DNA from: an uncultured virus (IMG/VR IMGVR_UViG_3300008120_000087)
Lineage: Duplodnaviria > Heunggongvirae > Uroviricota > Caudoviricetes
DNA: 64,000 bases
Direction: 5' to 3' (one strand)
IMG/VR virus record: IMGVR_UViG_3300008120_000087
Shown here: positions 1 through 51,885 of the stretch, piece after piece
Numbering within the stretch: position 1 is the first letter of the stretch
How the letters are laid out: each line of letters begins with the position of its first letter
The notes under the pieces: generated by a model
What the model saw: the letters and a program-made list of their open reading frames with translations, nothing else
Told to the model about the DNA's origin: nothing
Databases searched by the model: none
Translations under genes and position numbers: made by a program

Positions 1-1782
1 AAGTTTCAAAAACATATTGACAATCTTATTTCTAAAATCCTCAATGAGGAAATCGAGAGCAAGGTTAAACAAATTACCGAAGAAAAAGGTGAATGGCAGG
101 AAATTGAAGTTGAGGAAGGACTCAAAGGAGGTCAAAAGAAATTAGATGTTGCAGAGCCAAAGGGTAAATTAGATGCTGCAGACTTCAAAAAATTAAGAAG
201 TAAAAAGAAAGAGACTAAAGAAACCGAAGAAATGGATGAATGGTTTTTTTATGATAAAGATAAATCAACACATGGTGATTACGAAGGTGATGAAGAGGCT
301 GAAGAGGATGCAGAAGAATTGTCTCAGAATGAACCAACTTACGTTGGTAAAGGATTGGAAGACAATAAAATGAAAGCTAACCTCAAAAACAAAATATTTG
401 GTTCATTTAGCGATGAACATGGTTGGTTTGATGAAAAAGATAGAGCTCATATAGGAGATTTTGATTTCGATTTTGATGAAGAAGAATACGATGAGTTCGA
501 ACCTATGTTCCAAAAATTTGGTGAAAAAACTAATTGGTTTGCACCTGGTGAAGAAGGTAAGAAATTTTTCGACATGTATAAGGACAAATATGGTCCAATG
601 AAAATTAGAATCATGAAAGGTTTAGAAGAAGAAGCTGAGACTGAAGAAGGAAATGCTTTTACAGGGGCTTTAGCGGATGCTAAAAAAGACGGAAGAGATT
701 CTTTTGAAGTAGATGGAAAAAAATATCATGTTAAAGAATCTAAAGGTAAGAAGTGTGCGAAGTGTGGTATGATGAATTGTAAATGTAATCACAAAAAAGA
801 AACTAAAGAATCTGAAAAAAAATGGATTCAAAAAACTGATATTAAAAAAGGTGCACTTCACAAGAAATTGAATGTCCCAGATGATGAGAAAATTCCTCAA
901 TCAAAATTGAAATCATTGAAAAAAGAATTAATGAAGAAAGCTGAAGGGGATAAAAAATTGTCTTCTTCGGACTTAAAAACTTTGAAACAAGTTAATTTAG
1001 TTCTGACCCTCAAAGGAATAAAGGAAAATGAAAATAAAATCGTTTTCACTGAAAATGAACTTATAGATTTGATTGAAAATATTGTCATCGAGCAAAAAGA
1101 AAAAAAGGAAAAATCAAACATCTCAAAGAAAGAACCCGAAGGTTTGAAAAAAACAATGAAAGCTCTTAACGCGTCGAAAAAAGAAAATGAAGATTATGCT
1201 AAGAGTGTTGTGAAAAAAATGAAGGATTATCTCAAATCAGGTTCGAATGGTGAATTTAGTGAAAACCCTGAGGCGTTTCCAGAGAGTAATTATGACCTTT
1301 CAGGTATGAAAGAAAAAACAAAAAAGTATCATCCGTCTGAAGCAGTCGATGAATATATTGATGCATTCGCATACCCTGGTATGACAAATCTTGTTTATGA
1401 TGAAATCAAACCTGAAGATGAAAAAATCGAAATGTATTTGAAAGGAAATTCAAAAACAGGTAATGCTGTCAAGGACAAAGATGGTAAAGCGTTAGGTAAC
1501 GTGGTCCCGAGTGAGGTAGGTGAAAAGTTCATGAAAAATTATAAGGACAACCTATACGGTGCAGAACAACAAAACGCATCTTATAAAAGACAACCTCAAC
1601 CTGTAGACGTTGCAGGTGAGACCAAGTCAACTGGAAGTCTCAAAAAAATAAAATCATCAACTGAAAAATCTGCAAAAATATTCAACCAATTAGAATCAAC
1701 TGAGGACAAGAAATCAAAAATAATTTCTGAAGAAATGGAAAAGATGAAAAATCTTATTAGTTACGACAGAAAGACTCAGTAA
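1..1782 (+). CDS. Large acidic/Lys-rich mosaic protein, 5'-partial; possible head/internal protein
   Basis: Frame is open from base 1 (KFQKHIDNLISKILNEE...), upstream of the ORF-track Met at 232; short modules are separated by Glu-rich linkers. Confidence 0.6.
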   Translation, partial: KFQKHIDNLISKILNEEIESKVKQITEEKGEWQEIEVEEGLKGGQKKLDVAEPKGKLDAADFKKLRSKKKETKETEEMDEWFFYDKDKSTHGDYEGDEEAEEDAEELSQNEPTYVGKGLEDNKMKANLKNKIFGSFSDEHGWFDEKDRAHIGDFDFDFDEEEYDEFEPMFQKFGEKTNWFAPGEEGKKFFDMYKDKYGPMKIRIMKGLEEEAETEEGNAFTGALADAKKDGRDSFEVDGKKYHVKESKGKKCAKCGMMNCKCNHKKETKESEKKWIQKTDIKKGALHKKLNVPDDEKIPQSKLKSLKKELMKKAEGDKKLSSSDLKTLKQVNLVLTLKGIKENENKIVFTENELIDLIENIVIEQKEKKEKSNISKKEPEGLKKTMKALNASKKENEDYAKSVVKKMKDYLKSGSNGEFSENPEAFPESNYDLSGMKEKTKKYHPSEAVDEYIDAFAYPGMTNLVYDEIKPEDEKIEMYLKGNSKTGNAVKDKDGKALGNVVPSEVGEKFMKNYKDNLYGAEQQNASYKRQPQPVDVAGETKSTGSLKKIKSSTEKSAKIFNQLESTEDKKSKIISEEMEKMKNLISYDRKTQ

Positions 1783-1821
1783 AAATTCACATTGAAATTT
1801 AATTTATTATATTCTCCATAG

Positions 1822-2289
1822 ATGAACTCTATGGAGAATTTTTTTAATTGGATGTCCAAGACAATACCTAAAGATGAAGTTTTGATTTGGTTCAATACTC
1901 ATAACATGAGTTATGAAAAGATTGAGCTATATGGTGACCTATTCAAAAGTTTAAACCATATTATTATCAACACTTATATGGGAGACACCGAGGGTGAAAC
2001 TAAGATTTACCTTTCGCAAGAAGATAAAGAAAAACATTTCGAGTGGTGTTGGAATAAATTATTAGAGAATTTTCTAGCGGAAAATATTAAAATAAACAGA
2101 GAAGGGGACCACAAAGAGTATTTCAAAGAATTTTTTTCAGACAGTTTTTATAATCAACAACAAGATAACGTAAAAATGTCAATACCCAAATTCCTCAATG
2201 ATGTTTTTGATGTCGAAAAAGATTTTAGTAAGTCTGACTTGGACATACTGACCGAGCTATATAAGTTAATGGAAAAAAATATGATTTGA
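1822..2289 (+). CDS. Hypothetical protein
   Basis: 155 aa ORF with typical codon usage. Confidence 0.6.
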   Translation: MNSMENFFNWMSKTIPKDEVLIWFNTHNMSYEKIELYGDLFKSLNHIIINTYMGDTEGETKIYLSQEDKEKHFEWCWNKLLENFLAENIKINREGDHKEYFKEFFSDSFYNQQQDNVKMSIPKFLNDVFDVEKDFSKSDLDILTELYKLMEKNMI

Positions 2290-2369
2290 AAAAAATCTTG
2301 ATTCTATTTACACCAGACGTAAAAAAGTTAATATTATAACTATTAATAAACAACTATAACCATAGAAAA

Positions 2370-2552
2370 ATGGAAACATTAGAAAAAATCAAAGAATTGA
2401 CCGAACTACTTTCAGTTGACACAACAAAGTTTTTCAAAGGAAATAAGAGTGCGGGAACAAGAGCAAGAAAATCTGCACAAGAATTGAAAGCTCTTTTACA
2501 GAAACTCAGAGGTGAAATTCTTGAACACAAAAAGACAGAGGATAATGCATAA
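2370..2552 (+). CDS. Histone H1-like (Hc1-type) nucleoid protein
   Basis: KGNKSAGTRARK motif typical of the Bacteroidota/Chlamydia Hc1 family. Confidence 0.8.
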   Translation: METLEKIKELTELLSVDTTKFFKGNKSAGTRARKSAQELKALLQKLRGEILEHKKTEDNA

Positions 2553-2733
2553 TATTGAAACGATATATATTTTTATATTTGTTTTCACAATATTAGTAAC
2601 ATTAAAAAATGTCACAAAATTTTTAAGCGCCCTGTTACAAAAAGAACCAAAACCAATGGTTTATAGTAACAGGGAACTTATCTTCTTAGGTTTATCGTTG
2701 AGTTACATAATAACATATCTTATTACGAAATGA
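2545..2733 (+). CDS. Small membrane protein (2 TM)
   Basis: Two hydrophobic segments; overlaps neighbours as in an operon. Confidence 0.6.
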   Translation: MHNIETIYIFIFVFTILVTLKNVTKFLSALLQKEPKPMVYSNRELIFLGLSLSYIITYLITK

Positions 2734-3179
2734 GTTTTTACAAAGAAATAGCCCCGTTCATTGAATACATACGTTCAATCAGGAAGCTCAAAACCTATTT
2801 GAGTTTCGACATAGAGTTTCCTTCTAAATGGGTAATTCCAAAGAGTATGGTTGAGGAAGGACAAGTAGTTTCTTTCGAAACAGAGGATTCCAATAAAAAA
2901 GGGATTTCGTTCGTTACACCCTTGGATGAGGCCAACACCTCTTCTACCTTGTCTAAGATTTCAAAAATAATTAAATTGAATAAAGAAAAAGAAATCAAAG
3001 AAAAACTTTTCAAACATACAATAGAACAGTTGAAAGAAACTTTCGAAAAGACTGATTTAGATAAACTTAAAACATTATATTTCGATTTCGAATTAGAACA
3101 AACTGAATTAGAAATTAACGATGAGTCAGAGACAGGAGAAGATATTACAATGGCTGAACAGCGAGAAAGCGAAGGATAA
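2730..3179 (+). CDS. Hypothetical protein
   Basis: 149 aa ORF, ATGA overlap with upstream gene. Confidence 0.6.
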   Translation: MSFYKEIAPFIEYIRSIRKLKTYLSFDIEFPSKWVIPKSMVEEGQVVSFETEDSNKKGISFVTPLDEANTSSTLSKISKIIKLNKEKEIKEKLFKHTIEQLKETFEKTDLDKLKTLYFDFELEQTELEINDESETGEDITMAEQRESEG

Positions 3180-3309
3180 AAAAGAATTGGAAAGGGAAAA
3201 AGAAAGCTTCATACGTCAAATAAAAAAGTTGAATAAAGAAGACATATTTCCCAAACCAAAAAAACTAACCTTATGGCAGAAAATAAAAATACTGATTTTG
3301 GGGAATTAG
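3121..3309 (+). CDS. Hypothetical protein
   Basis: 62 aa ORF in operon. Confidence 0.5.
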   Translation: MSQRQEKILQWLNSEKAKDKKELEREKESFIRQIKKLNKEDIFPKPKKLTLWQKIKILILGN

Positions 3310-3503
3310 AAAAGTTAGCTTTGATTGCCGACGCTTGTCAAAACGTTTTTGTCGGAAAAGCAACAATGATATTCGAGCTGAAAAAGGAAGAATATACCAA
3401 AGTCATTAATCATTTCAGAGAGATTGAAAGACATCACAAACAATTTTCAATAGACATCTCAGGAACTGAATTTCACTTTATTCTTGATGAGGAAGAGAAG
3501 TAA
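3273..3503 (+). CDS. Hypothetical protein
   Basis: 76 aa ORF in operon. Confidence 0.55.
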   Translation: MAENKNTDFGELEKLALIADACQNVFVGKATMIFELKKEEYTKVINHFREIERHHKQFSIDISGTEFHFILDEEEK

Positions 3504-4122
3504 ATCTTCTGTATAAGATGGACTTATCAAATCCTTTATTTTCCAACAATTGATATAAGTATTTTTTCTGTGGTTTAGAAAAGTCCTTAACAAACAGACA
3601 ATCACCCCTTTTGATTTTCCAAAAGTAATTTGATAGACAATCAATAAAACGTGATGCTTCTGATTCATTTTTCAAAGTGAACAAAAAGACTTTTTCCTCA
3701 TCTTGAATGATAACCTTATTATTCAACATTGATATCATTTTTACACCTTCGCCCTTCAAATAAGTTTTTATCAACCTTTGGACTTCTATCTTCTTTTTCG
3801 TTTGAATGTCGAAAACCTTTTCCTCCTTTTTGTATGGAGATATTAAAATCAATGTCATACCAGGTTCATCAAGTTTTACTCTCAAATTTCTACCCAAATC
3901 GTCGGTTAGATAGATTGGCACTTCTTGTTTTGAACTCATATGTATTATACCCATTTCATAGTCGACTTCCTTTCCTGATTCATATTTTACATCAAAAATT
4001 ACGTCACTGGATTCTTTCATTTTTTTGTTGAAAAAATCCTTAGCCTTGGAAGGGGTGATAAACTTATTTATTATTCTTTTCTTTTTTTTATCCTTGAATA
4101 ATACCACGAGGTAATTAGCCAT
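3478..4122 (-). CDS. Hypothetical protein
   Basis: 214 aa ORF, divergent from dnaJ. Confidence 0.65.
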   Translation of the reverse strand: MANYLVVLFKDKKKKRIINKFITPSKAKDFFNKKMKESSDVIFDVKYESGKEVDYEMGIIHMSSKQEVPIYLTDDLGRNLRVKLDEPGMTLILISPYKKEEKVFDIQTKKKIEVQRLIKTYLKGEGVKMISMLNNKVIIQDEEKVFLFTLKNESEASRFIDCLSNYFWKIKRGDCLFVKDFSKPQKKYLYQLLENKGFDKSILYRRFTSLPHQE

Positions 4123-4124
4123 AT

Positions 4125-5045
4125 ATGAAAAATTACTACAAAATTCTAGAAGTTGAAGAGAATGCCTCAGAAGATGAAATCAAAAAGAGTTACAGAAACC
4201 TCTCAAAAAGATTTCATCCTGACATCAATCCCGATGGTGCTGAAAAATTTAAAGAGATAAACGAAGCTTACGAAGTTTTGGGAGACAGAGAAAAAAGAGC
4301 TCAGTATAATAATCAAAAGTCCAACCCATATCAAGGAACCAATTTTGAGAGTTTCTTTGATAACATGTTTGGTCGCAATCCTCATTTCCAAGGACAAAGA
4401 CCGAGGCATGCACCAGACAAAGTTGTGAGACTTCAAGTTTCACCAATTGAATCCTATTTGGGTGGGGAAAAGGAAATTCAATATAGTAGAGATATTCCGT
4501 GTAATTCTTGTCAAGGTAACGGGGGCCAGCATCAAACCTGTGGGTCTTGCGGTGGTCAAGGTTTCTTTATCAAAACATTTGGGACAGGATTCATGGTTCA
4601 ACAAATAAGGACAATTTGCGGGAACTGCAATGGTCAAGGAACCATTTTAGTTGAAAGGTGTTATTTGTGTGGTGGAAAAGGAACAAGTCAGACCATTCAT
4701 AGCATTAGGGTCAAAGTCCCACAAGGTATTGATAGTGGACAGTTTCTCAAACTACCAAACTTGGGTGATTTCAAAAACGGAGGTATGGGGGATTTGGTAA
4801 TTCAAGTGGAAATGGTCCCGAAAGATGGGTTTGAAAAGATTAATTCAGATTTGGTTTATAATTTGACACTGAATTTGGAACAAATACAAAATGATAAATT
4901 TTTAATTCCACATCCAGATGGTGATTTAAATTTACAAGCACCAAAAATAATAGACACATCTAAACCTTTAAGATTAAGAGGAAAAGGATATAAAGGTGGT
5001 GATTTTTATGTTAAACTCAATTTGAAATTCGAGAGACCTATTTAA
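4125..5045 (+). CDS. dnaJ: DnaJ chaperone
   Basis: J-domain with HPD, four CxxCxGxG motifs, C-terminal GDLVI domain. Confidence 0.92.
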   Translation: MKNYYKILEVEENASEDEIKKSYRNLSKRFHPDINPDGAEKFKEINEAYEVLGDREKRAQYNNQKSNPYQGTNFESFFDNMFGRNPHFQGQRPRHAPDKVVRLQVSPIESYLGGEKEIQYSRDIPCNSCQGNGGQHQTCGSCGGQGFFIKTFGTGFMVQQIRTICGNCNGQGTILVERCYLCGGKGTSQTIHSIRVKVPQGIDSGQFLKLPNLGDFKNGGMGDLVIQVEMVPKDGFEKINSDLVYNLTLNLEQIQNDKFLIPHPDGDLNLQAPKIIDTSKPLRLRGKGYKGGDFYVKLNLKFERPI

Positions 5046-5178
5046 AAAATTCTATTATAATTTTGAATATTTCGATTGTTCCGTAAACAGATGAGAAAAC
5101 AATATAACTTCCTAAAATTAACACGCCCCATTTAACTCTATTTATTGGACGATTTGATTTACAACTACTACATGCCAT
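5038..5178 (-). CDS. Small CxxC membrane peptide (46 aa, not in ORF track)
   Basis: Manual translation MACSSCKSNRPINRVKWGVLILGSYIVFSSVYGTIEIFKIIIEFFK*. Confidence 0.55.
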   Translation of the reverse strand: MACSSCKSNRPINRVKWGVLILGSYIVFSSVYGTIEIFKIIIEFFK

Positions 5179-5188
5179 ATTTATAATT

Positions 5189-5365
5189 ATGATTTTGGAA
5201 CAAATTATTAAAAGAGTTCTTTACCAATATTTGGACGAGAAAGAACAAAAGAAATTTAAGAAACCAAGGAAATATAGTAAATCATATTGTAAATCTACAT
5301 CATGCTCAGATATGGGATTTACTCAGAAAGCTTCATGTAGACCTTACAAAAATTGTTATAACTAA
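5189..5365 (+). CDS. Small Cys-rich basic protein (58 aa, not in ORF track)
   Basis: MILEQIIKRVLYQYLDE...YCKSTSCSDMGFTQKASCRPYKNCYN*; preceded by TATTTAT. Confidence 0.6.
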   Translation: MILEQIIKRVLYQYLDEKEQKKFKKPRKYSKSYCKSTSCSDMGFTQKASCRPYKNCYN

Positions 5366-12115: not shown

Positions 12116-14740
12116 ATGGGTGATATTTTAATAGTTCCGAGTAATTCCATTTCTAGAACACCAGACAGAGTCCCTTATATAAATTGGGTTAACAGTGGAA
12201 CAAGTGTTTGGAGAGTTGTGCCAACGGGTAAGATTAATCTTAGCTCAGCATCAGTTACTAATCAATTAGTTATTGACCGTTCTAGCCAAACAATTGGTGT
12301 TGTAACGCTTAATGTTTCTGATTATTTTGCTATTGACTCAGTTCAAGTAATTGATGGAACTTTGGATTGGATTGGACCAACCACAGGTATTGCAGGAGCT
12401 CAAGGGGCTCAGGGTCACCAAGGTGCGCAGGGCAATACAGGTGCACAGGGTGATACGGGTGCACAGGGAAATTTGGGTGCACAAGGGTTACAAGGAATAC
12501 AAGGTGCACAAGGTGATACAGGTGCACAAGGTCAGGTTGGACCCCAAGGGGCACAGGGTGCTAAAGGCACAACCCAGGGTGCACAGGGTAATACAGGTGC
12601 ACAAGGAGCCACGGGAAATACCGGTGCACAAGGAAATACAGGTGCACAGGGTAATACAGGTGCACAAGGAGCCACAGGTAACACAGGAGCGCAAGGTAAC
12701 ACGGGAGCTCAAGGAAATGTTGGACCACAAGGGGCCACAGGTAATACAGGAGCACAAGGAAATACAGGTGCACAGGGTCATACAGGTGCTCAAGGAGCTA
12801 CAGGTAACACAGGAGCACAAGGTAATACAGGAGCACAAGGAAATGTTGGTCCACAAGGGGCCACAGGTAATACAGGAGCACAAGGTAATACAGGAGCACA
12901 AGGAAATGTTGGACCACAAGGGGCCACAGGTAACACAGGGGCTCAGGGAGCTACCGGGGCTACAGGTAACGTAGGACCACAAGGAGCCACAGGTAACACA
13001 GGAGCACAAGGTAATACAGGAGCACAAGGAAATGTTGGCCCACAAGGAGCCACAGGTAATACAGGTGCACAAGGACCTACAGGTTCTACAGGTGCAGTAG
13101 GACCTCAAGGTGCTACAGGTCCTCAAGGGGCTCAAGGACCACAAGGTGCGACGGGTCATGCTGGTGCTCAGGGTGCTACAGGACCACAAGGAGCACAGGG
13201 ACCAACAGGAAATACAGGTCATCCAGGTGCACAAGGTGCTACGGGGAATGCTGGTTCTACTGGGGCACAAGGTGCGACGGGTCATGCGGGTGCTCAAGGT
13301 GCTACAGGACCACAAGGTGCACAGGGGCCAACAGGAAACACAGGTCACCCTGGTGCTCAAGGTGCTACAGGTAATGCAGGTTCGACGGGTGCTCAAGGAG
13401 CCACAGGACATCCAGGAGCTCAAGGAGCAACAGGACCAACAGGACCTCAAGGTGCTCAAGGTGCCGTTGGTCATACAGGAGCACAAGGAGCCACAGGACC
13501 ACAAGGTCCAACAGGTTCGGGTGGAGGAACAGGACATCCAGGAGCACAAGGAGCCACAGGACCACAAGGTCCTCAAGGTTCAGGTGGAGGAACAGGACAT
13601 CCAGGAGCACAGGGAGCCACAGGACCACAAGGTCCAACAGGTTCTGGTGGAGGAACAGGACATCCAGGAGCACAAGGTGCCACAGGACCACAAGGTGCAC
13701 AAGGTGCAGGGGGTAATACAGGTGCAATTGGTCCTCAGGGAGCAACAGGTGCTCAGGGTTCACAGGGTGGTAAGGGTGCTACAGGTCATCCAGGTGCACA
13801 AGGAGCAACAGGAAATCAAGGTGCTCAAGGTGCTCCAGGACCACAAGGTGGAACAGGAGGTCAGGGTGCTCAAGGTGCTCAAGGTCCTCAAGGTGGTGGG
13901 GGTGCTACGGGTAGCCAAGGGGCGCAAGGAGCTGCTGGACCGAAAGGTCCAAACGGAGGTCAAGGTGCTCAAGGTGCACCAGGTGTAACAGGACCTCAAG
14001 GTAACCAAGGTGCACAAGGACCAGGTGGTCCTACTGGTCCTACGGGTAACCAAGGTGCACAAGGGTCGGGTGGTCCTACGGGTCCTACGGGTCCTACGGG
14101 AGGACAAGGAGCCCAAGGTGCACAAGGTGCAACAGGACCTGGCTCGTTCACCTCTTGTTTTGTTCAGAATCTATGTGGTGATTCTTATTACGCCATTTGT
14201 GTAAACGCGGGGGCATGTCAAAACAGAACAGTTTATTCCCAAGATATTAACTGGCAAGCAAATTTTAGCATCCAACTCGCTTCAGATGTTACAACTTGTC
14301 AAAACTCAACATTTCAGTGGACCTATGGTTCAATTACGATTGGTGTTACATATTTGTATTATGGTTCTACTAACTTCAATGGTTATTTTACATACGGGGG
14401 CAGCTGCTCTGATAGAAGAGTCAAATATAATGTTAAATCACTTGATAATACACTTGAAAAAATTCTTGAACTTAGAGTCGTAGAATACGATTGGAATGAA
14501 AAGTTGACGAAAAGCGATTACATTAAAAGATTAAACAATAACAAGCTTCACTCGATTGGTCTGATAGCTCAAAATGTTAAAGAATTTTTCCCGACAGTAG
14601 TTAAAATCGGTTCTGATGGTTTTTATACTGTTGAATATAATAGAATGAACGCCGTTTTGATTGAAGGTATTAAAGAGCAACAAGTATTTATATCAGATAT
14701 CGAAAAACAAATAAATGAACTTGAAAACCTTCTTAATTAA
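12116..14740 (+). CDS. Collagen-like fibre 1 with Cys-containing head and peptidase S74 chaperone domain
   Basis: Gly-X-Y tract 12386-14143; [15 protein letters not shown]-terminal coiled coil. Confidence 0.9.
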
Positions 14741-17700
14741 TGTCTGACGTTATAATATATCCCAATGGTAAAAGTGGTGGAAACCCTAACCCTCATATGG
14801 AATTTGAAGGGATTTCATCCGCGGACAAAATACAATTATCTGTTAATGGTTCTGGAAATATCCAAGTTTCATCAACAACAAAAAGTAACATAGCAACTAT
14901 CGGAGCTGAATTACTCGTTGATGGTGCAAAGGTCACCGGAGGAATATATGGATTGTATGTGGGTGGTATAGAAATGATTAATGAAGTTGGCGAATGGGTA
15001 GGACCTGCTGAGGGTATATCTGGATTTACCGGTGCTCAAGGAGCACAAGGTGCTTCAGGAACTACAGGCTCTCAGGGGTCAATAGGTGCTCAAGGAGCGC
15101 AAGGTTCTCAAGGTGCTAAGGGAGCAATAGGAAATGTAGGTGCTCAAGGTTCACAAGGTTCGATAGGACCTCAAGGAGCTCAAGGTGCTACGGGTGGACA
15201 GGGAGCACAGGGAGCTCAAGGAGCGGATACGGGAGCTCAAGGTGGTCAAGGAGCTCAAGGTGGTCAAGGAGCTCAAGGTGCTCAAGGAGCTAACACAGGT
15301 GCTCAGGGTTCACAAGGTGCACAAGGAGGACAAGGTGCTCAAGGTGCTCAAGGTGGAACAATTGGTGCTCAAGGAGCTCAAGGAGCACAAGGAGGACAGG
15401 GTTCACAAGGAGCTCAGGGAGCTAATACAGGTGCTCAGGGTGCACAAGGAGCCCAAGGAGGACAAGGTGCACAAGGAGCCCAAGGAGGAACAACAGGTGC
15501 TCAGGGTGCACAGGGGGCACAAGGAGGACAAGGAGCTCAAGGAGCTCAAGGAGGAACAACAGGTGCTCAGGGTTCAACTGGAGCACAAGGTGCACAAGGT
15601 TCTCAAGGAGCACAAGGAGGAACAACAGGAGCCCAAGGAGCTCAAGGTTCACAAGGAGGACAGGGTGCTCAAGGAGCCCAAGGGGGAACCACGGGGGCAC
15701 AAGGAGGTCAAGGAGCTCAAGGTGGAACAGGAGCACAAGGAGCCCAAGGAGGAACAACAGGTGCTCAAGGTGGTCAAGGCTCACAAGGAGGACAGGGAGC
15801 GCAAGGTGCACAGGGTGCTTCAACAGGTGCACAAGGAAACCAAGGTGCACAAGGACCACAAGGTGCTCAAGGTGCACAAGGAGCCAATACAGGAGCTCAA
15901 GGTAATACAGGTGCTCAAGGAGCTCAAGGCTCTCAAGGAGCACAAGGAGCCAATACAGGTGCACAAGGAAACCAAGGTGCACAAGGACCACAAGGTGCTC
16001 AAGGAGCACAAGGAGCCAATACAGGAGCTCAAGGTAATACTGGAGCACAAGGGGCACAAGGTTCACAGGGTGCTCAAGGTGGTTCAACAGGTGCCCAAGG
16101 TGCGACAGGTAATCAGGGTGCCCAAGGAGCCCAAGGAGCTCAAGGTGGTTCAACGGGAGCACAGGGAGCTCCTGGTGTTCAGGGCTCTCAAGGGGCTCAG
16201 GGAGCTCAAGGAGCTTCAACAGGTGCACAAGGTGCTCCTGGTGTCCAAGGTTCACAAGGAGCTCAAGGAGCCCAAGGAGGAAATACGGGTGCACAAGGTG
16301 CTCCTGGTGTCCAAGGTTCACAAGGAGCCCAAGGAGCTCAAGGTGGTAACCAAGGTGCACAAGGTAACCAAGGTGCTCAAGGACCAACAGGTGCTCAAGG
16401 AGCTCAAGGTGGAACTACAGGTGCTCAAGGAAGCCAAGGTGGAGGTGGTTCCACAGGTGCTCAAGGAGCACAGGGTGGTGCTCAGGGAGCTCAAGGCGCT
16501 CAGGGTCCTGTTGGGGCTCAAGGTGGAACAGGAGGGGGAGGTGCAACAGGATTCCAAGGAGCACAGGGACCAACAGGACCTACAGGAGGAACAGGAGGAC
16601 AAGGTGCCCAAGGAGCAGTGGGGCCTGGTGGAGGACCAGGAGCTACGGGAGCCCAAGGGGCTCAAGGCTCGGGTGGTGGTCAAGGGGGTCAAGGTGCCCA
16701 AGGTGCTACAGGTTCAGGTGGGGGCCAAGGTGGTCAAGGTGCTCAAGGTAACGTAGGACCTACAGGTCCTCAGGGTGGAACTGGTCCAACAGGAGGTCAA
16801 GGAGCTCAAGGAGCTCAGGGTCCACCTTCAGACCAAAGACTTAAAGATAATATTCAATCCTTAACAAATGTATTAGAAAAAGTTAAAGGTATTGAGGGTG
16901 TTAGATTCGAATGGGTTGACCATCCTAAAATATCAATGAACCGTGCAATATCTCTTCCAAGTGCATTTACTGGTGAAACAATAGGTTTTATTGCACAGCA
17001 AATTGAAGATATCGTCCCAGAAGTTGTTTGGACAGACGAGGAGGGCTTTAAATCAGTTGAATATGGTCTTATGGTAAGTTTGGGTATTGGTGCACTTCAA
17101 GAACAACAGAAAAGAATAATCTCAATAATGGAGAGAATAAAAATTTTAAAAGATAATTTAAGTGTCTGAAAATATAATAATATATCCTGATTATGCGTTT
17201 CCCACGGTCGAATTCGTTGATTCTGGCTCAACCTCAACATATTTGAAGCTTGAAGACGATTCACCACTACTACATTTGCATTGGACAGATAATAGTAATA
17301 TTGTTTATCTTGCTTGGAGAAGTGATAAACCTTCATTTGTAACTTACAATAGTAACCTCAAGATAACAACTAGTTTAAAAAATTCAGCAGGAACACTTAT
17401 CAACTCTACAGGATGGGTTGGTAATAGAGAACCAACTGGTGCTCAAGGTAGTATTGGTTTTCAAGGGGGACAAGGTGCTCAAGGAAATCAAGGTTCCCAG
17501 GGAGTGACAGGTGGTCAAGGTGCTCAAGGTTCACAAGGGGGTCAAGGAGCACAAGGTCCAACAGGGGCTCAAGGTATTACTGGCTCACAAGGTTCCCAAG
17601 GTGCTGTAGGTCCACAAGGCGCACAAGGTGGTCAAGGTGCTCAGGGTGCAATAGGTGCACAAGGCGATACTGGTTCTCAGGGTTCACAAGGAGGTCAAGG

Positions 17701-19183
17701 TGCTCAAGGTGCCACAGGTTCACAGGGAGCGGTCGGTTCTCAGGGTTCACAAGGTGGACAAGGTGCTCAAGGGCCGGTAGGGTCACAAGGTGCTACAGGT
17801 TCTCAGGGTTCACAAGGAGGTCAAGGTGCTCAAGGTGCCACAGGTTCTCAGGGAGCGGTTGGTTCCCAAGGGTCACAAGGAGGTCAAGGAGCACAAGGAC
17901 CAGTTGGGTCACAAGGAGCTACAGGTTCCCAAGGTTCACAGGGAGGACAAGGAGCTCAAGGTGGACAAGGTTCACAAGGTGCCATAGGTTCACAAGGTTC
18001 ACAAGGTGGACAGGGAGCTCAGGGTCCCGTTGGTTCAGCAGGAGCCACAGGTTCCCAAGGTTCACAAGGTGGACAGGGAGCTCAAGGGCCAGTAGGTGCA
18101 CAAGGGGCCACGGGCTCACAAGGTTCGCAGGGAGGCCAAGGAGCACAAGGTCCAGTAGGTTCTGCGGGTGCCACAGGTTCCCAAGGCTCACAGGGTGGAC
18201 AAGGAGCTCAAGGAGCGCAAGGTTCGGGTGGTAATCAAGGAGCTCAAGGACCAACAGGTGGACAAGGAGCTCAAGGAGGACAAGGTTCTCAAGGTGGTAA
18301 GGGTGCTACAGGACCAACAGGTGGACAAGGAGCTCAAGGAGCGCAAGGTTCGGGTGGTAATCAAGGAGCACAAGGACCAACAGGTGGACAAGGAGCTCAA
18401 GGAGGACAAGGTTCACAAGGTGCCAAAGGTGGTCAAGGTTCACAAGGTGGACAGGGAGCACAAGGAGCACAGGGGCCTGTAGGTGCCACAGGTTCACAAG
18501 GTTCTCAAGGAGGACAAGGTGCTCAAGGAGCACAAGGTGGTAAAGGTAACCAAGGAGCTCAGGGACCAACAGGAGGACAAGGTGCGCAAGGAGCTCAAGG
18601 CCCAGGAGGAGCCCAAGGAGCACAAGGACCGGCAGGAGGACAAGGTGCGCAAGGAGCTCAAGGTGGTAAAGGTAACCAAGGAGCACAAGGACCGGCAGGA
18701 GGACAAGGTGCGCAAGGAGCTCAAGGCAGTGGTGGAAACCAAGGAGCCCAAGGTTCACAGGGAGGACAAGGTTCTCAAGGTGGTGGTGGTGCAACAGGAG
18801 CTCAAGGAGCTCAAGGTTCTCAAGGTGGACAAGGTGCTCAGGGTCCTGGCGGAGCACAAGGTGCTCAGGGTCCTGGCGGACCAACGGGTAACCGAGGTCC
18901 ACAGGGAGCTCAAGGTCACACAGGACCTCCTGGTGGAGGAGGTGGAACTGGTTCTCAAGGAGCCCAAGGTCCATCACAAGGTAATGGAAACCAAGGTGCA
19001 CAAGGTGCTCAAGGTCCTGGAGGACCAACCGGTCCTACGGGTAATCAAGGTGCTCAAGGGACTGGTGGTGGAACAGGAGGAACAGGTCCACAAGGTGCTC
19101 AAGGTGGAGGTGGTGGAACTGGTCCACAAGGTGGCACAGGACCAACAGGGGCACAAGGTGCATCAGGTGCACCTGGACCATCG
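12386..19183 (+). repeat. Three coding 9-nt-period tandem repeat tracts (ggNgcNcaR dominated)
   Basis: Tracts 12386-14143, 15013-16827 and 17438-19183. Confidence 0.95.
14740..17169 (+). CDS. Collagen-like fibre 2 with peptidase S74 chaperone domain
   Basis: Gly-X-Y tract 15013-16827; [14 protein letters not shown]. Confidence 0.9.
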
Positions 19184-19504
19184 GATTTAAGGTTCAAAAC
19201 TAATATCAGACCAATTACAGATAGTTTGGACAAAATATTAAAGACTAGAGGTGTTTCCTACCATCTAATAAAAGATGATGAAAGACCCGAGTTACTTCAG
19301 ATAGGTTTTATTGCACAAGAGTTGCAGTTGGTATTTCCTGAACTCGTTTATGAAGACCCAGAAACCACAATGTTATCAATAAGATTTGAAACGATTATAT
19401 CAGCTTGTTTAGAGGCAATCAAAGAACAATCCACCCTTTTAGATTTCCATGAAAGGAAATTAGAAAAATTGGAAATGTTAGCAAGCGGAAAAAAAGGGAT
19501 TTAA
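17162..19504 (+). CDS. Collagen-like fibre 3 with peptidase S74 chaperone domain
   Basis: Gly-X-Y tract 17438-19183; [18 protein letters not shown] start. Confidence 0.9.
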
Positions 19505-19518
19505 AAATCCCTTTTTTT
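19490..19518. terminator. Bidirectional intrinsic terminator
   Basis: AAAAAAGGGATTT-a-AAAATCCCTTTTTT between convergent genes. Confidence 0.75.
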
Positions 19519-20369
19519 TATTTATAGTTTTTGTTGATAATGTCTCTAATCTCGAAAGTTGTATTGTAGAACATACTTAGGAACTTTTTCCATATTTCAG
19601 GATTAAATTTCTTAATCAATTCGACATAGTGTAAATAATATGGTTCCTCACCTCTTTCAGGAAGTAAGTCCGCCAAATGGGGCATATCTGCGGTCAGATT
19701 CTTAAGAACTTTGAATGAATCTTGTCCTACGTGTTCGTCATTGATTCTGAAAAGAATGTCTTGACTGAGCTTATTTAATGGCTCACCCTTGGCAAAATAG
19801 TTGAGAATATTTTTCAAAGACTTATCCAAAATCTCTTTGTTTTCAATTTTTCTTAATCTTTTTGCTCTTCTTTCAAATTCTCTTACAAGACCTTCCAAGA
19901 ACTCATTTGATATCGCAAAGAATTCTATTGGATGACCCCAATACTTTTCATCAGACTTTTCATCATAGCTCAACATATATTTTGGAGACCAAGAACTACT
20001 TTGAGTTGGGTCACTGGCGTGTATCATCTCATGATAGATTGTAAGATAAAGATTTTTCTTAGATTCGTAATATTTTGGATTTACCTCGATATAAATGTCT
20101 GCGGGGTCATAAGATTTACTCGGTTTAGTTCCCATAAATCCCAAGTATTTCAATCTTGGATTAACAATCACTTTTACCAAACCGTCAACACCATTTGCAG
20201 TTTTGAAGGGGATAACATCAACAACCTCTTTCTTATTACCGTAATTTTTGTTTCGGTCATTCCAAAGGTTTTCTACGACCGAATTAATTTTTTGTAGTAA
20301 TTCAGGTGTGAATTTATATCTTTTAGCTTCAGATAAAATATCGGATAATATGTTGATGAATTTAGGCAT
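19518..20369 (-). CDS. Putative zincin (HExxH) protein
   Basis: YHEMIH plus downstream HPIE. Confidence 0.6.
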   Translation of the reverse strand: MPKFINILSDILSEAKRYKFTPELLQKINSVVENLWNDRNKNYGNKKEVVDVIPFKTANGVDGLVKVIVNPRLKYLGFMGTKPSKSYDPADIYIEVNPKYYESKKNLYLTIYHEMIHASDPTQSSSWSPKYMLSYDEKSDEKYWGHPIEFFAISNEFLEGLVREFERRAKRLRKIENKEILDKSLKNILNYFAKGEPLNKLSQDILFRINDEHVGQDSFKVLKNLTADMPHLADLLPERGEEPYYLHYVELIKKFNPEIWKKFLSMFYNTTFEIRDIINKNYK

Positions 20370-21144
20370 TCAAATCAGTCCTCCAATCTATGTTTATTTT
20401 ATTAGGTTTGATTTTACCTGTATAAGAATCAAATACTTGTTTGAAAGGTAATTGAGCTTGTTTGATGTTTTTGATTCTTGTCATGTTATCTCCTATCCCT
20501 GTAGATAAATAGGCTTGAATCTCATCATCTACCACATTTTCTCCATATCCCATACCAGTTATTTTTCTTGCTACCGATTCTCTTACATTTGGCTCGAGTC
20601 TTTCTATGTTTTTCATTTGTTTGTTCTTATAAATTGGAGATGAAAACCAAAGACCATGTGCTACTTCGTGAAAAATAAGTGAAGGGTCTTCACCATTACT
20701 TTGGTCAATACCAATTAAATAGAAATCCTCTCCACCTACTAACGTTCTAATCGTATCTATTACACTAAACATTATCAAATCATAAAAATTTACGTCTGGA
20801 ATAACTTTCATACAAGATTCAATTGAGTTACAAGGGATATTATAACCTGCCCAATCTTCATGATAAGAGAAATAATCTTTCTTGGTCTTTTTCTTGTAAT
20901 GTTTCACGTAGTCATACCATTTGAAACCTTTTCCTCTAAATGTCTCGGAATCTGACTCATAAAACTCCTGATACCTCATAAAAACTCTTGCTCTTAATTT
21001 GTCGTCTTTGATGACAAGAGCAAAAATCTTTGGATACATCTCGAAAAGTTCTATTTGGGATAAAATATTTTTGATGTTTGGTGGAGGAGTTTTTCTTGGA
21101 GTAAAGCCTCTTTGTTCAACTAATATGTATTTTACGTAAGCCAT
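20362..21144 (-). CDS. Putative zincin (HExxH) protein
   Basis: FHEVAH plus downstream DEIQAY. Confidence 0.6.
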   Translation of the reverse strand: MAYVKYILVEQRGFTPRKTPPPNIKNILSQIELFEMYPKIFALVIKDDKLRARVFMRYQEFYESDSETFRGKGFKWYDYVKHYKKKTKKDYFSYHEDWAGYNIPCNSIESCMKVIPDVNFYDLIMFSVIDTIRTLVGGEDFYLIGIDQSNGEDPSLIFHEVAHGLWFSSPIYKNKQMKNIERLEPNVRESVARKITGMGYGENVVDDEIQAYLSTGIGDNMTRIKNIKQAQLPFKQVFDSYTGKIKPNKINIDWRTDLNA

Positions 21145-32894: not shown

Positions 32895-32995
32895 TTGTAT
32901 TAGGTTTAATTATGTTTGTCATCGTTATAGGAATCATAGGATGGTTCGATATGATGAGACAACTCAGAAGAATGGTTGACGATTTGGACCACTAA
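32891..32995 (+). CDS. Small membrane peptide (34 aa)
   Basis: MIVLGLIMFVIVIGIIGWFDMMRQLRRMVDDLDH*; ATGA overlap. Confidence 0.5.
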   Translation: MIVLGLIMFVIVIGIIGWFDMMRQLRRMVDDLDH

Positions 32996-33125
32996 AAAAA
33001 AATATTTTTTCTTAGGGTTACTTTTTGAACTTTTCGGAATATTTATATGTTCATGTCCGAGAGGACGAACACCCCAAACACTCGAGATGAATAAAAGAGT
33101 AATCTCGAAATAATAGTCCCACGAA

Positions 33126-33157
33126 TTTGGTTATTTGAGAAAATCTCCGTATATTTG
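33126..33157 (+). promoter_or_regulatory. Bacteroidota sigmaA-type promoter P1 of the RNA island
   Basis: TTTG-N20-TATATTTG. Confidence 0.7.
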
Positions 33158-33278
33158 TGGGACTTCTTTTTCAAAACAACATAGTTCTTAAAAATATTGA
33201 AATGATGACTCCTGCTGGTTCAACCAGCGCATGACGTGGATAGGTGACCGAGGGGTAAGTAGGAGTTAATCATTATAT

Positions 33279-33351
33279 TGCGGGCGGGGGGCAAGGTGTT
33301 CCATGGGTCTCATAAGCCCACTTAGCTTGGTTCGATTCCAAGGCGACGCAA
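33279..33351 (+). tRNA. tRNA with CAT anticodon (Met or Ile2), atypical acceptor stem
   Basis: Anticodon arm TGGGT-CTCATAA-GCCCA; T arm CTTGG-TTCGATT-CCAAG; D arm GGGG/TTCC. Confidence 0.75.
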
Positions 33352-33362
33352 CAAAAAAAAGA

Positions 33363-33427
33363 TTTGAGAGTTTAAAAAAACCTTCTTATCTTTGTAAAAC
33401 ACACGATGAGAGTCGTATGTTCTTTGA
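33363..33427 (+). promoter_or_regulatory. SigmaA-type promoter P2 plus boxA-like element
   Basis: TTTG-N20-TATCTTTG; GTTCTTTGA at 33419. Confidence 0.7.
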
Positions 33428-33511
33428 CAAAGACTGAATTTGAACCTGTCCCATTAAGAGTGGGGGGTATTAGAATCGAATCAGAAAAAGTCAAAAAAAG
33501 TTTCAAAAAGA

Positions 33512-33632
33512 TTTGACAGTTCCAAAAACGTGTCTTAACTTTGTGAAACAATTGAAGGGGAGGAGTTGTAAGTGTTCCAACTTCGGATGGTCGTCAAGAT
33601 TCTTCTTCCCTTTAAATTTGAAAGTTCTTTGA
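33512..33632 (+). promoter_or_regulatory. SigmaA-type promoter P3 plus boxA-like element
   Basis: TTTG-N20-TAACTTTG; GTTCTTTGA at 33624. Confidence 0.7.
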
Positions 33633-33704
33633 ATTAAGATATTATCTTCACAGTTAGTTGATGATGAAACCTTCGGGTTTATTCTGAGACATTCTGTTCA
33701 AGAT

Positions 33705-34505
33705 ATTGGCCGCCTATGGTCATTAAATAAACTATGAAAATAGTATAAAGTGGAACTCCCTGGTTTGGGAGGTCTGCGGTTTCCGAAAGGGAACTCGAGT
33801 AGGCAATCAGGATATTATCTGACCTTTAGTACTGAGGGTGACACTGTAGGGAACGTGGTTGGGTAATCAAGCGATACGGGTCGTTTGATTGAGGTGGGAA
33901 CACCAATAAGAATAACCTGAAGGATTAATGTAAGAAACTATGGCATCCACCATAGTAATTGCGTGATTCAATATTAGAGTTGGCTTAACACCGAACAAGG
34001 TAAGTTTCATAACAGGTGGTGCTGATGGAACCTTAACTTTCTCTCTACCAAGAGGTTAGTTATGAAGTTGACTCAAAATATGGAGGTCGGGAGACTTCAG
34101 AGAGTAGCTTAGTATCGTGTCGTCCAAAAGATGGCATGGCTTCAGACGGGCCGCTACTTTCATCATCCGTAAACCAACTTTGTTAATTAAGGTTTAACAA
34201 ACTCAAAATTAAACAAGGAAAAGTGCTCGTCAGTTGTGTGCGACAGGTCACTACATAGTTAAGAGATGTTCTTAGCCTTGAAGGGTCCCAAGCCCGACAG
34301 GATTTTCTTGAAAGTTCTCTAATCCCGCAAGGATTAATTGGGGTGGCAACCTCGAAGAGTGATGAGTAACGAGAGAGTGGTACACAACTTAAGGATTGGT
34401 TAATCTAATTGACCGTGACTGAGGATTACTTCTCAAAAGGAAGTGGAAACGAAGGGAAATCATAATCCTTCCAAAGATTCTCACCAAAACTTGTATTCTC
34501 AGAGT
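33705..34505 (+). ncRNA. Large structured ncRNA, GOLLD-like (~800 nt; ends approximate)
   Basis: No ORF across almost all of it; GC-richer than flanks; many tetraloop hairpins (TCC-GAAA-GGG, TCCC-GCAA-GGA, GG-CAA-CC); downstream of a tRNA; size, context and 3' motifs recalled from GOLLD. Confidence 0.7.
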
Positions 34506-34512
34506 TTTTTGC

Positions 34513-34552
34513 CAACCCCGTCAGTTTCTACTGGTGGGGTTTTTTGTTTTTT
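34513..34552 (+). terminator. Intrinsic terminator closing the RNA island
   Basis: AACCCCGTCAGT-ttct-ACTGGTGGGGTT followed by a T tract. Confidence 0.85.
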
Positions 34553-36687
34553 TAACAACCGTAGCTATCAGTTATTGAACCATTCGTTGCGATTCTATAC
34601 CAATCGGAGGAACCTAAAGTGTTGTTGGTATAATACAAGTCATTACCATTGTATGGTGTTGTTAGGTTTGAATCTGAATAAAATTTGGTAATTGTATACC
34701 AACTTGATTCTGCGGCATATAAGGTCTGAGTTAAAACAACAGGATTACAATCTATCGATACAAAAGTTTGTCCTGAGGTAACTGAATAAGGGTAAAATAC
34801 AAATGATTGCGTAGGTGTTTGAGATGGTGTTACAGACTGTGTAACTGTTGGTTCTGTTTGTGTTGGTGTAGGAGTTTGAGTTACAGAGGCCGTCGGAGTC
34901 TGTGTAAGCGTTGGTGTAGGTGAGTTGGTAGTTGTTGGTGAGTTAGTTGGTGTACTAGTAGTTGTTGGAGTTGGAGTATTAGAAGCGGTCAATGTTGGTG
35001 TGTTAGTAGTTGTTGGAGTTGGAGTATTAGAGGCTGTCAATGTTGGTGTGGGTGTCGGACACGCACAAGGTGAATTATAATACAAATTATTGAACTCACC
35101 TGAAATAACAGTTACTGAACCATATTCTATACAACCCTCGGGTGCACCCCAAGAATCAACACCAGCTTCAACGCTCAGGATATTTACTTCTCCACTACAA
35201 CAATCTGTGTAACTGAAAAAAGTTTCAGTTAATGTTACATCGAAATAAATTTTTTGATAACAATCGGCAAGTCTCGTTTGTGTTGGTGTAGGAGTAAGTG
35301 TGCCTGTGACTGTCGGACTGGTTGTTGGTGTTGGTGTAGAGGTCGAGGTCGATGTAGGAGTTAATGTAGGAGTTGAGGTCAATGTAGGGGTTAGAGATGG
35401 TGTCGTGGTCGGTGTTGGTGTTGAGGTCGGGTTTATTGTAGGAGTTGGGGATGGTGTTGGACAAAGTCCCTGACAACACTCACAACTATCGAAACATTCT
35501 AAAACATCATTCGAATTCACGACAACCGAAGGGCTTACATTATCAAAACATTGAGGAACTCCCCCACATTCAGTATGAGGTGCCTCATCACAATAACCGT
35601 AAATTACAGAACAACTGTCGGTTAAATTTGGATTCGACGAACGGAAATATCTCAAGAAAGATGGGTCCCCACATAGAAGAGCTGAATAATAGTAAACAGG
35701 AGGGGTCTGTGTAGGTGTTTGAGTGTTGGTAGGTGTTTGAGTGTTGGTAGGTGTTTGAGTGTTAGTTGGCGTTGGAGTCGGGGTAGAGGTGTTGGTAGGT
35801 GTTTGAGTGTTAGTTGGCGTTGGAGTTTGTGTAGAAGTATTTGTTGGTGTTTGAGTGTTGGTTGGTGTTTGTGTAACGGTCGATGTTGGAGTTGGGGTAG
35901 TGCAGTTGGTTATGTTTCCTGGAGGAGATTTCAATACCATCCAAACATCTTGAGCGAAGGGAATTTGGGATGGTTCAAATAAATAAATCGAAATACCATC
36001 TATAGAACAACCAGAAAATAATAAGTCCCAAATTCTAGGTATTGAATTGATGTTACAAGGGTCCTCTCCAGGTCCGAAACAGGTTTCAGGGTAAATAATG
36101 TAATAGTAATTCAATCTATTGTCAGATAAGTCCCTCACTCTATATTGGATAGCCAAAGAAGGAGAAGAGATATAAACAGTTCCTGCTAAGTTATAATTGG
36201 GACACTCACCAACTTGAAAATTCGTTACTAAATTTGTCCAAGGAATACCGTTGAACACTGTTGGGTCGATGTAAGGAGGATTGTATGTTGCAATTCTATA
36301 ATCTATATTAACGTTGGGTGGTAAGGCATATTCACTTGAAATTCTTAAAGTGACTGGAAACGGATATGGGTATTCATATACATAACAAGATTCGGTGTTG
36401 ACATTCACAACATCCCCCAAAGAATATGTCTGTATCATGTTTAATATATCTCCGTCATCTTGACTAACTAAATTCTCAGAAAAGTAATTTGGAATTTGTA
36501 TTGATGATGGAACAGCCCAAATCCTTTTGGATTGTTGAGGTAGTATTTCGTCTTGGTAAACCCACTGAAAATTCGAACTCTTCTGATAATTTATTGTTAT
36601 GACAGAGTCAGTAGGATTGGAAAAAGAAATTTTCTCAGTTTTTTTTACAATTCTTTGTTGACCAATAATTATAACGGGATTTGACAT
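34552..36687 (-). CDS. Pro/Thr-rich (mucin-like) repeat protein with Cys-rich domains; likely virion/surface
   Basis: Three TPTxT tracts separating Cys-containing modules; TATTTAT before MSNPV. Confidence 0.75.
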   Translation of the reverse strand: MSNPVIIIGQQRIVKKTEKISFSNPTDSVITINYQKSSNFQWVYQDEILPQQSKRIWAVPSSIQIPNYFSENLVSQDDGDILNMIQTYSLGDVVNVNTESCYVYEYPYPFPVTLRISSEYALPPNVNIDYRIATYNPPYIDPTVFNGIPWTNLVTNFQVGECPNYNLAGTVYISSPSLAIQYRVRDLSDNRLNYYYIIYPETCFGPGEDPCNINSIPRIWDLLFSGCSIDGISIYLFEPSQIPFAQDVWMVLKSPPGNITNCTTPTPTSTVTQTPTNTQTPTNTSTQTPTPTNTQTPTNTSTPTPTPTNTQTPTNTQTPTNTQTPTQTPPVYYYSALLCGDPSFLRYFRSSNPNLTDSCSVIYGYCDEAPHTECGGVPQCFDNVSPSVVVNSNDVLECFDSCECCQGLCPTPSPTPTINPTSTPTPTTTPSLTPTLTSTPTLTPTSTSTSTPTPTTSPTVTGTLTPTPTQTRLADCYQKIYFDVTLTETFFSYTDCCSGEVNILSVEAGVDSWGAPEGCIEYGSVTVISGEFNNLYYNSPCACPTPTPTLTASNTPTPTTTNTPTLTASNTPTPTTTSTPTNSPTTTNSPTPTLTQTPTASVTQTPTPTQTEPTVTQSVTPSQTPTQSFVFYPYSVTSGQTFVSIDCNPVVLTQTLYAAESSWYTITKFYSDSNLTTPYNGNDLYYTNNTLGSSDWYRIATNGSITDSYGC

Positions 36688-36749
36688 ACTTAGATAAATA
36701 CAAACAAGTTTCATTCAGGATTGAAAAACGGAGCCAAAATGTAATTTTT

Positions 36750-40467: not shown

Positions 40468-40694
40468 TGTGGGAAATATATGGATATATCGGGAGCGTCC
40501 TCATTTTAGGTTCATTCCTAATTGAGGACGTTTTCCGTCTTAGAGCGGTCAACACGGTTGGCGCAATTTTTTGGTTAGTTTATGGATTCGGAATTTCGGC
40601 AGGTCCGACAATTGTTGTAAATTCGTGCGTTATCATCATTCACTCCTATTGGTTTTACAAACACAGAAAAGAATGGACATCAAAGAAAAAATAA
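40464..40694 (+). CDS. YgjV-like inner membrane protein
   Basis: GYIGSVLI..LRAVN..GA.FW.VYG..P..VN. Confidence 0.7.
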   Translation: MMWEIYGYIGSVLILGSFLIEDVFRLRAVNTVGAIFWLVYGFGISAGPTIVVNSCVIIIHSYWFYKHRKEWTSKKK

Positions 40695-51578: not shown

Positions 51579-51885
51579 AAAAGGTGATAAATTCATTCAC
51601 TTCACAAAATATGGTGGAATCAACAAAGGAGAGGTTCAAGGACTTCATTCCACAACGGTATGGGACTTCGATAATTTATGTAGATATGAATCAATTTCCA
51701 TCTTTACAACCGAAGGTGTAAGATTAAATTTAGATGGAACGGATGGTCGAATTTACAAAATTGATTCTGAAATGGTCAAAGACCAAGCAAGACAGTTTGA
51801 AAAAATGATGAAAAAAGCTTCAGATAAAAAGAATAGACCATCCAAAGAAACAATTCACCACTTAGATGAAGACAAAAAAACCTAG
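51565..51885 (+). CDS. Hypothetical protein
   Basis: 106 aa ORF. Confidence 0.55.
   Translation: MEMFKKGDKFIHFTKYGGINKGEVQGLHSTTVWDFDNLCRYESISIFTTEGVRLNLDGTDGRIYKIDSEMVKDQARQFEKMMKKASDKKNRPSKETIHHLDEDKKT

Follow-up and report, generated by a model that had tools for sequence, protein, structure and literature searches.

A candidate three-chain collagen fibre encoded by three length-matched genes of an uncultured freshwater jumbo phage

Complement C1q, with its A, B and C chains, and collagens of types I, IV and IX are heterotrimers in which non-collagenous domains determine the choice of chains, and, to our knowledge, a mixed collagen of three chains has so far been physically shown in animals only. 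Examples of collagen-like proteins on the prokaryotic and phage side are Scl1 and Scl2 of Streptococcus and BclA of Bacillus. Prokaryotic collagens are regarded as homotrimers and heterotrimeric collagen as an animal invention, and making defined heterotrimeric collagens is an unsolved practical problem (PMC8968730). The passages cited here attribute chain selection in animal collagens to the C-propeptide (PMC5353611) and describe fusions of collagen with S74 domains in viral fibres (PMC12220804). Here, we describe a cassette of three tandem collagen-like genes (chains 1, 2 and 3; positions 12116..19504) in the window, by which we mean the whole stretch of 64,000 nucleotides (nt) analysed, corresponding to the first 64 kb of the 181,846-bp IMG/VR virus record IMGVR_UViG_3300008120_000087. 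The three collagen tracts agree in their number of Gly-X-Y triplets within a genome, while that number varies widely between related phages. With a probability of roughly 0.6, we read this cassette as encoding an obligate A-B-C collagen of a phage, in which S74 paralogues act as a chain-selecting ‘propeptide’, one residue is looped out per seven triplets and a single monomeric tip is carried. The literature searched contained no description of a phage collagen that is heterotrimeric or length-locked; the parts, namely viral fibres with collagen and S74 and the S74 motif itself, are known, and their combination was absent from those papers.

Like C1q and other animal collagens, the window cassette consists of clustered paralogous genes with helices of equal length, end domains that possibly select the chains, and breaks confined to a single chain. 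In contrast to them, its end domains are unrelated in sequence, its candidate selector is a self-cleaving S74 chaperone, its breaks are strictly periodic, it stems from a bacteriophage, and its heterotrimer is a predicted one. With prokaryotic and phage collagens it shares long Gly-X-Y tracts, the lack of a hydroxyproline machinery, flanking non-collagenous trimerisation domains and richness in Thr and Gln, whereas the three co-evolving chains (195 units in the window) and the near absence of charged residues set it apart. The likeness to S74 fibres of phages and other viruses lies in the presence of S74 in all three window proteins, with a Ser/Lys motif that aligns to the solved structure 6f45; the difference is that 6f45 and 7dc3 are each built from a single sequence, whereas the window family keeps three S74 types together on shafts that appear to be in register.

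All three genes are encoded on the + strand. The chain 1 gene (12116..14740; 874 amino acids, aa) comprises an N1 domain (aa 1-90; 12116..12385), a collagen tract of 586 aa (aa 91-676; 12386..14143), a Cys/Tyr-rich tip domain of about 88 aa (14144..14407) and an S74 intramolecular-chaperone domain of type C1 that starts with SDRRVK (14408..14737). The chain 2 gene (14740..17169; 809 aa) encodes an N2 domain, a tract of 605 aa (aa 92-696; 15013..16827) and an S74 domain of type C2 (SDQRLK; 16828..17166), and the chain 3 gene (17162..19504; 780 aa, with a GTG start) an N3 domain, a tract of 582 aa (aa 93-674; 17438..19183) and an S74 domain of type C3 (S-DLRFK; 19184..19501). The preliminary description of this DNA had proposed three tandem genes for collagen with a C-terminal S74 domain, and both the open reading frames (ORFs) and Pfam bear this out in 3/3 proteins, with Collagen (PF01391) matched at E-values of 1e-73, 1e-33 and 3e-40 for chains 1, 2 and 3, and Peptidase_S74 (PF13884) at 52.3, 48.8 and 60.0 bits against a curated cut-off of 22. 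The stop codon of chain 1 and the start codon of chain 2 overlap in TAATG, and chains 2 and 3 overlap by 8 nt. No terminator-like site was found on the + strand between the three genes, the sole one being a hairpin followed by a T-run at the end of chain 3 (19488..19519, +), which is consistent with a single, translationally coupled operon.

The N-domain of about 90 aa that had been described as common to the three proteins was recovered as a set of weak, beta-rich paralogues with the frame ‘xxIIIxP...W.G’. None of these domains matched a Pfam, PHROG or Protein Data Bank (PDB) family; N1, without a match in Pfam or PHROG, is 57% identical to its counterpart in the IMG/VR relative L011, a PDB profile search with N3 yielded nothing meaningful, and every score in a protein Atlas search with N2 was below 0.9. 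A structure model of N3 was all-beta at a predicted local distance difference test (pLDDT) score of 54.5, and a monomer model of the chain 1 tip with its S74 domain reached a pLDDT of 42, both models being of poor quality.

In the window, the tract of chain 1 consists of 195 Gly-X-Y units plus one extra residue at unit 21, that of chain 2 of 195 units plus 20 single extra residues, and that of chain 3 of 193 strict units plus three extra residues, i.e., 194 by length; the earlier count of 195/195/194 was thus reproduced except that a strict recount gives 193 for chain 3. Tandem Repeats Finder returned periods of 63, 66 and 63 nt for chains 1, 2 and 3, which means that all three are built on a super-unit of seven triplets. 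Tracts of different chains share DNA words of at most 23-24 nt in the window; in eight relatives, the longest such words measure 20-43 nt. The proposal that the chains use different units that had expanded independently stood in so far as no long DNA is shared, and is qualified by the seven-triplet period common to all chains. Gene conversion, considered as a cause of the matched lengths, was rejected because the tracts have no long DNA in common. As for composition, the tracts contain 15-23% Gln, 2.8-7.7% Pro (2.8% in chain 2), at most 0.7% Lys and at most 0.3% Asp; Glu is outside the twelve commonest residues listed for every tract, and the commonest triplet is GAQ. Triplets of the salt-bridge type KGE/KGD are next to absent from the three tracts; in the part of a 2025 paper cited here, such bridges are credited with the folding fidelity of collagen, as a proposed ‘folding code’ (PMC11923368).

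In order to follow tract lengths among relatives, metagenome contigs were scanned with a conserved flanking gene (window 20362-21144), which returned 80 loci, 46 of them with collagen ORFs. The resulting dataset comprises 19 distinct cassettes with at least two complete tracts, 10 of which have all three; it includes the window and L011, and L028 was dropped as identical to the window. Tract length varies between phages from 98 to 360 units, but within a genome the chains are of similar length. Pearson coefficients were 0.995, 0.978 and 0.985 for the pairs 1-2, 2-3 and 1-3, and the median absolute differences were 3, 4 and 2.5 units, compared to 42-58 when lengths were permuted across genomes (p <= 3e-4). 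Some breaks in chain 2 consist of a Gly-less triplet plus one residue (e.g., ‘GSQ-SST-Q’); with non-Gly triplets included in the totals, twelve of the 19 loci matched within 3 units. The totals for chains 1, 2 and 3 were 195/195/193 in the window, 224/224/223 in L011, 144/143/141 in L046, 158/157/155 in L047, 172/172/171 in L067 with L074, 254/253/252 in L082 and L083, and 233/233/232 in L094; chains 2 and 3 alone could be compared in L086 (268/267), L068 (140/139), L061 (141/139) and L088 (360/359). Co-variation of lengths within related genomes was the test set in advance by the preliminary description, and it turned out positive over the 19 cassettes (r 0.978-0.995), although one chain is off in seven of them.

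This agreement was also observed with regard to the phylogeny. Independent contrasts between chains 2 and 3, on a tree of two flanking proteins, correlated with r = 0.925 (p = 4e-8; same sign in 15/17) once L067, separated from L074 by a branch of zero length, had been removed; when it is included, this branch inflates one contrast, and r over the 19 loci falls to 0.40. The sister phages L046 and L047, whose proteins are 89-95% identical, differ by two seven-triplet units per chain, which arose through separate insertions or deletions: +42 aa in chain 1, twice +22 aa in chain 2, and +30 and +12 aa in chain 3.

What is matched is the number of triplets and not that of residues, as had been proposed from the window. 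Chain 2 carries between 13 and 39 inserted residues per locus, and a conserved residue number would cost 0.333 triplets for each of them; the observed deficit per inserted residue was 0.000 +/- 0.013 over 11 loci and -0.137 +/- 0.111 over all 18. Similarly, chain 1 of L059 holds an insertion of about 180 aa, and its triplet total of 173 still matches that of chain 3 (171). Such uncompensated insertions point to selection on triplet number, that is, on register, rather than on contour length. The L059 insertion is globular and lies in the middle of the tract (aa ~369-548), flanked by 91 and 82 triplets; on visual inspection, it resembles a PA14-type sugar-binding domain. Chain 3 of L071 has an insertion of its own, about 91 aa long and containing Cys, after 14 triplets.

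Agreement between the chains extends to the interior of the tracts. When each window chain is written out seven triplets to a row, a strict seven-triplet period of constant phase is seen in all of them, and data-driven markers delimit exactly 20 units per chain at the same place, triplets 22-161 (12578..13837, +, in chain 1). The marker in chain 1 is GAT at triplets 25+7k (25..158), that in chain 2 the inserted residue, mostly Thr, at triplets 24+7k (24..157), with 19/19 spacings equal to seven, and that in chain 3 GGQ at triplets 22+7k (22..155). A smoothed similarity score, whose block bounds are less sharp, placed the arrays of chains 1, 2 and 3 at triplets 17-146, 20-168 and 20-158. Among the relatives, the GGQ marker of chain 3 precedes the insertion node of chain 2 by two triplets in 9/9 genomes, and the arrays of these two chains are co-terminal at both ends in six of nine, at 11, 13, 20, 27, 30 and 30 units. 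In eight of ten genomes, chain 1 is enriched in hydrophobic triplets at the position that precedes the chain 2 node by one triplet (0.27-0.57 against a base of 0.07-0.17) and depleted of them at the node itself. Hydrophobic triplets of chain 3 were tried as a phase marker and abandoned, their phase not being conserved (offset 0 in the window, -3 in L074); GGQ was used instead.

The lineage of L067 and L068 departs from the usual period in more than one chain. Here, chain 3 has a 13-triplet period in the two loci, as does chain 1 in L067 (that of L068 being incomplete), and the nodes of chain 2 are spaced by six or seven triplets in both; in the other lineages the period is 7 or 14. Despite the irregular spacing in L067, 12 of its 21 nodes have a chain 1 partner, a number equalled by one of 172 circular shifts. 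Seven Gly-less triplets occur in this lineage, and they are restricted to chain 2; we infer that a triple helix accommodates triplets of this kind more easily when a single strand carries them than when every strand does.

The end domains behave as a set. Every cassette has exactly one N1, N2 and N3, one C1, C2 and C3, and one tip, which is the retention that a one-of-each assembly predicts. The rule also holds in L088, as far as this locus, whose first gene is incomplete, can be read. In this metagenome contig (360/359 units), domains have been shuffled within the cassette and the gene order is altered, such that the tip and a C1-type S74 stand on an N3-type chain, and another protein combines an N2-type N-domain with a C3-type S74. 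S74 domains of one type are 35-64% identical between phages, compared to 24-39% between paralogues, and the three paralogue types appear to be ancient and always kept together. The S, D, R and K of the S-D-x-R-x-K motif are invariant in 6/6 aligned S74 domains, and its Ser and Lys align to those of SDRRIK in 6f45; on the basis of the endosialidase literature, we take these two residues to have a catalytic role in cleavage. The S74 profile matched the solved structures 6f45 (‘Long tail fiber distal subunit’), 8jov (‘Putative tail fiber protein’) and 7dc3 (myelin regulatory factor ICA), and a PDB search with the C3 domain as single sequence gave no match. The Cys/Tyr-rich domain is present in chain 1 only, between helix and S74, on one chain per cassette; it is hypervariable among 17 relatives while the adjacent S74 part is conserved, and its sequence pattern makes it a likely receptor-binding element. 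Families of tail fibres in PHROG were matched by the C-termini through S74 only, the genes neighbouring the cassette are not structural, and the complete relative described below yielded only a weak sheath match of 26.7 bits, which is below the cut-off.

That relative, G002, carries an identical cassette on a record of 321,283 bp that has terminal repeats and is rated as complete, from which it follows that the window belongs to an uncultured jumbo phage of about 321 kb. The phage is a freshwater one: around 90% of the cassette words were present in 20 sequencing runs from 14 studies, labelled as lake-water or freshwater metagenomes (11 runs) and fungus metagenomes (9 runs). Identical cassettes were found on seven IMG/VR contigs and one metagenome contig, the former (L004-L010) showing 0 mismatches to the window over 17.4 kb, and these are one clonal phage assembled at least eight times. 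Scans of IMG/VR with N1, N2 and flank alignments each returned the same eight contigs. The longest exact internal repeat in the tracts is 50-51 nt, short enough to be resolved by paired short reads. Logan contigs from four runs match the cassette without differences but break inside the tracts, and their numerous ‘joints’, which lie within repeats and have sides below 33 nt, give no verdict on tract length; neither a long read nor a single contig from an independent assembler was found to span a tract. Of the 41 proteins matched by the N2 profile among 1.84 billion representatives, 40 are fragments of 39-203 aa, so that assemblies evidently break inside these genes. A search of the upstream flank against a phage DNA collection gave no match, nor did an N1-region protein word search among proteins of 480-1530 aa.

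With regard to structure, an axial alignment of the three chains, side by side and in register over at least 140 triplets, appears well supported by these sequence patterns. The simplest structure that would produce such a register is one A-B-C collagen triple helix to which each gene contributes one strand, and we hold this core of the model to be probable, slightly more so than the model with all its parts. The chains, presumably in a 1:1:1 ratio, would form one mixed rope of 195 triplets, about 168 nm long at the textbook rise of 0.286 nm per residue. The three different N-domains would make up the virion-proximal end, and the three different S74 domains would associate at the C-terminus, help to nucleate or register the helix and then cleave themselves off at the conserved Ser, leaving a mature rope with a single hypervariable Cys/Tyr-rich tip derived from chain 1. 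Every seven triplets (~6 nm), one extra residue of chain 2 would be looped out, as is suggested by the fact that its length is never compensated. Each such node would adjoin a hydrophobic triplet of chain 1 and the fixed GGQ of chain 3, giving periodic, one-sided nodes, and the Gly-less triplets of chain 2 would be tolerated by virtue of the two intact strands flanking them.

Several observations weigh against this structure. The two best-scoring solved relatives of the S74 domain, 6f45 and 7dc3, each list three chains of one sequence, and a heterotrimeric S74 would therefore be without precedent among them. The 88-aa tip parts the chain 1 S74 from the helix, while those of chains 2 and 3 adjoin it, so that the S74 domains of the three chains could form a mixed trimer only if the tip were asymmetric and looped out. 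With Pro at 3-8% and charged residues nearly absent, the stability of the helix is an assumption. A C-terminal motif common to chains 1 and 3 lies at triplets 182-186 in the former and 175-179 in the latter, seven triplets out of register, and the breaks of chain 2 have no counterpart breaks in chains 1 and 3. In addition, the conserved phase could be partly passive, as unit-sized insertions and deletions preserve phase, although passive inheritance can account neither for the period having changed jointly between chains nor for the irregular nodes of L067. Finally, seven of the 19 loci have one chain that is 5-36 units off: chain 2 in L059 (-12 to -14), chain 3 in L038 (-32 to -36) and in L067 (-14), and one chain each in L031 (-29), L034 (+12), L091 (-36) and L066 (-5). 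These deviations are close to whole repeat units, and L067, whose 100%-identical twin L074 carries the missing 39 aa, is the one deviant shown to be a deletion variant of unit size; plausible causes of the mismatches are collapse during assembly, mixed strains or natural slippage.

Some of these difficulties disappear if each chain forms its own homotrimeric helix and three such helices are packed in axial register as a nine-chain bundle with laterally interlocking nodes. S74 would then remain homotrimeric as in the solved examples, no asymmetric tip would be needed, an equimolar operon would fit, and the locks in length, array and phase would likewise be accounted for. Of the in-register co-assembly proposed in the preliminary description, the register is upheld by co-varying lengths and co-extensive, phase-locked arrays, and a single mixed helix is the more probable of the arrangements that would give it. 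We nevertheless consider the bundle unlikely. With 2.8% Pro, a chain 2 homotrimer would have to accommodate breaks in each of its strands at intervals of 6-7 triplets and, in the L067 lineage, Gly-less triplets in each of them too, and insertions in every strand should lengthen its helix, yet no compensation is seen; once S74 has been cleaved, moreover, chains 2 and 3 would be rods without a distal domain. We also know of no precedent for a register-locked bundle of homotrimers among phage fibres.

Three separate homotrimeric fibres, kept equal in length by a common distance to be spanned on the virion or by a common periodic partner, would be in keeping with the single-sequence trimers of 6f45 and 7dc3. 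This arrangement predicts a conserved physical length, however, at odds with the slope of 0.000 rather than 0.333, it leaves the co-extensive arrays, the cross-chain phase to a single triplet and the joint change to a period of 13 unexplained, and only one of the three fibres would bear a tip; we regard it as improbable. Least credible, and very improbable in our judgement, is that the match reflects chance, shared ancestry alone or an assembly artefact. Repeats can collapse in short-read assemblies, the mismatch of 7/19 loci could be read in this sense, the eight matching assemblies of the window amount to one clonal sequence, and no Logan contig spans a tract. Yet neither the permutations nor the phylogenetic contrasts agree with chance or ancestry, close relatives carry parallel but separate insertions and deletions in all three genes, the exact repeats are as short as stated above, and equal counts in three dissimilar arrays are not something that an artefact can produce.

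Other features were recorded in the window and in G002. The latter has a fourth collagen-like ORF of about 2197 aa (320273-321283 of contig C1 joined to 1-5207; loci L108 and L109), with about 630 triplets of the GTS/GSS/GID type, 99 extra residues and a C-terminal domain of 158 aa, and without S74; its length is not matched to the trio. The 344-bp terminal repeat of G002 lies inside this gene, which makes both the gene length and the ‘terminal repeat’ call uncertain. A neighbouring ORF with PT linkers resembles a 720-aa ORF of the window (34552-36714, -), in which Cys/Tyr-rich modules are joined by long (T/S)PTPT linkers and whose sole match is phrog_15511, a family without assigned function. 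Next to it, an ORF-free gap (32895-34551) contains a full-length GOLLD RNA (Rfam RF02032; 34100-34505, +; 322 bits, E 1.9e-91, model positions 1-416 of 416). A region at 51866-55363 (+) encodes a GT2 glycosyltransferase, an ORF without assignment and a UDP-galactopyranose mutase (PF03275, E 7e-76). Glycosylation of Thr-rich collagens is known from some bacteria and giant viruses, and it is a speculation that these genes might modify the fibre. A full DnaJ, a UvrC-like GIY-YIG nuclease and a DinB/ImpB-family polymerase are encoded at 4125-5045, 40673-41938 and 58370-59578, respectively.

The comparative signal in this family is unusually quantitative. If the A-B-C reading is true, the cassette would represent the first natural obligate heterotrimeric collagen outside animals, a minimal model of collagen chain selection and registration that could be expressed in bacteria, and a ready scaffold for defined heterotrimeric collagens. 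For the phages themselves, it would mean a new fibre principle, with one monomeric tip on a shaft made by three genes, and a shaft whose length evolves by seven-triplet steps in all three genes jointly.

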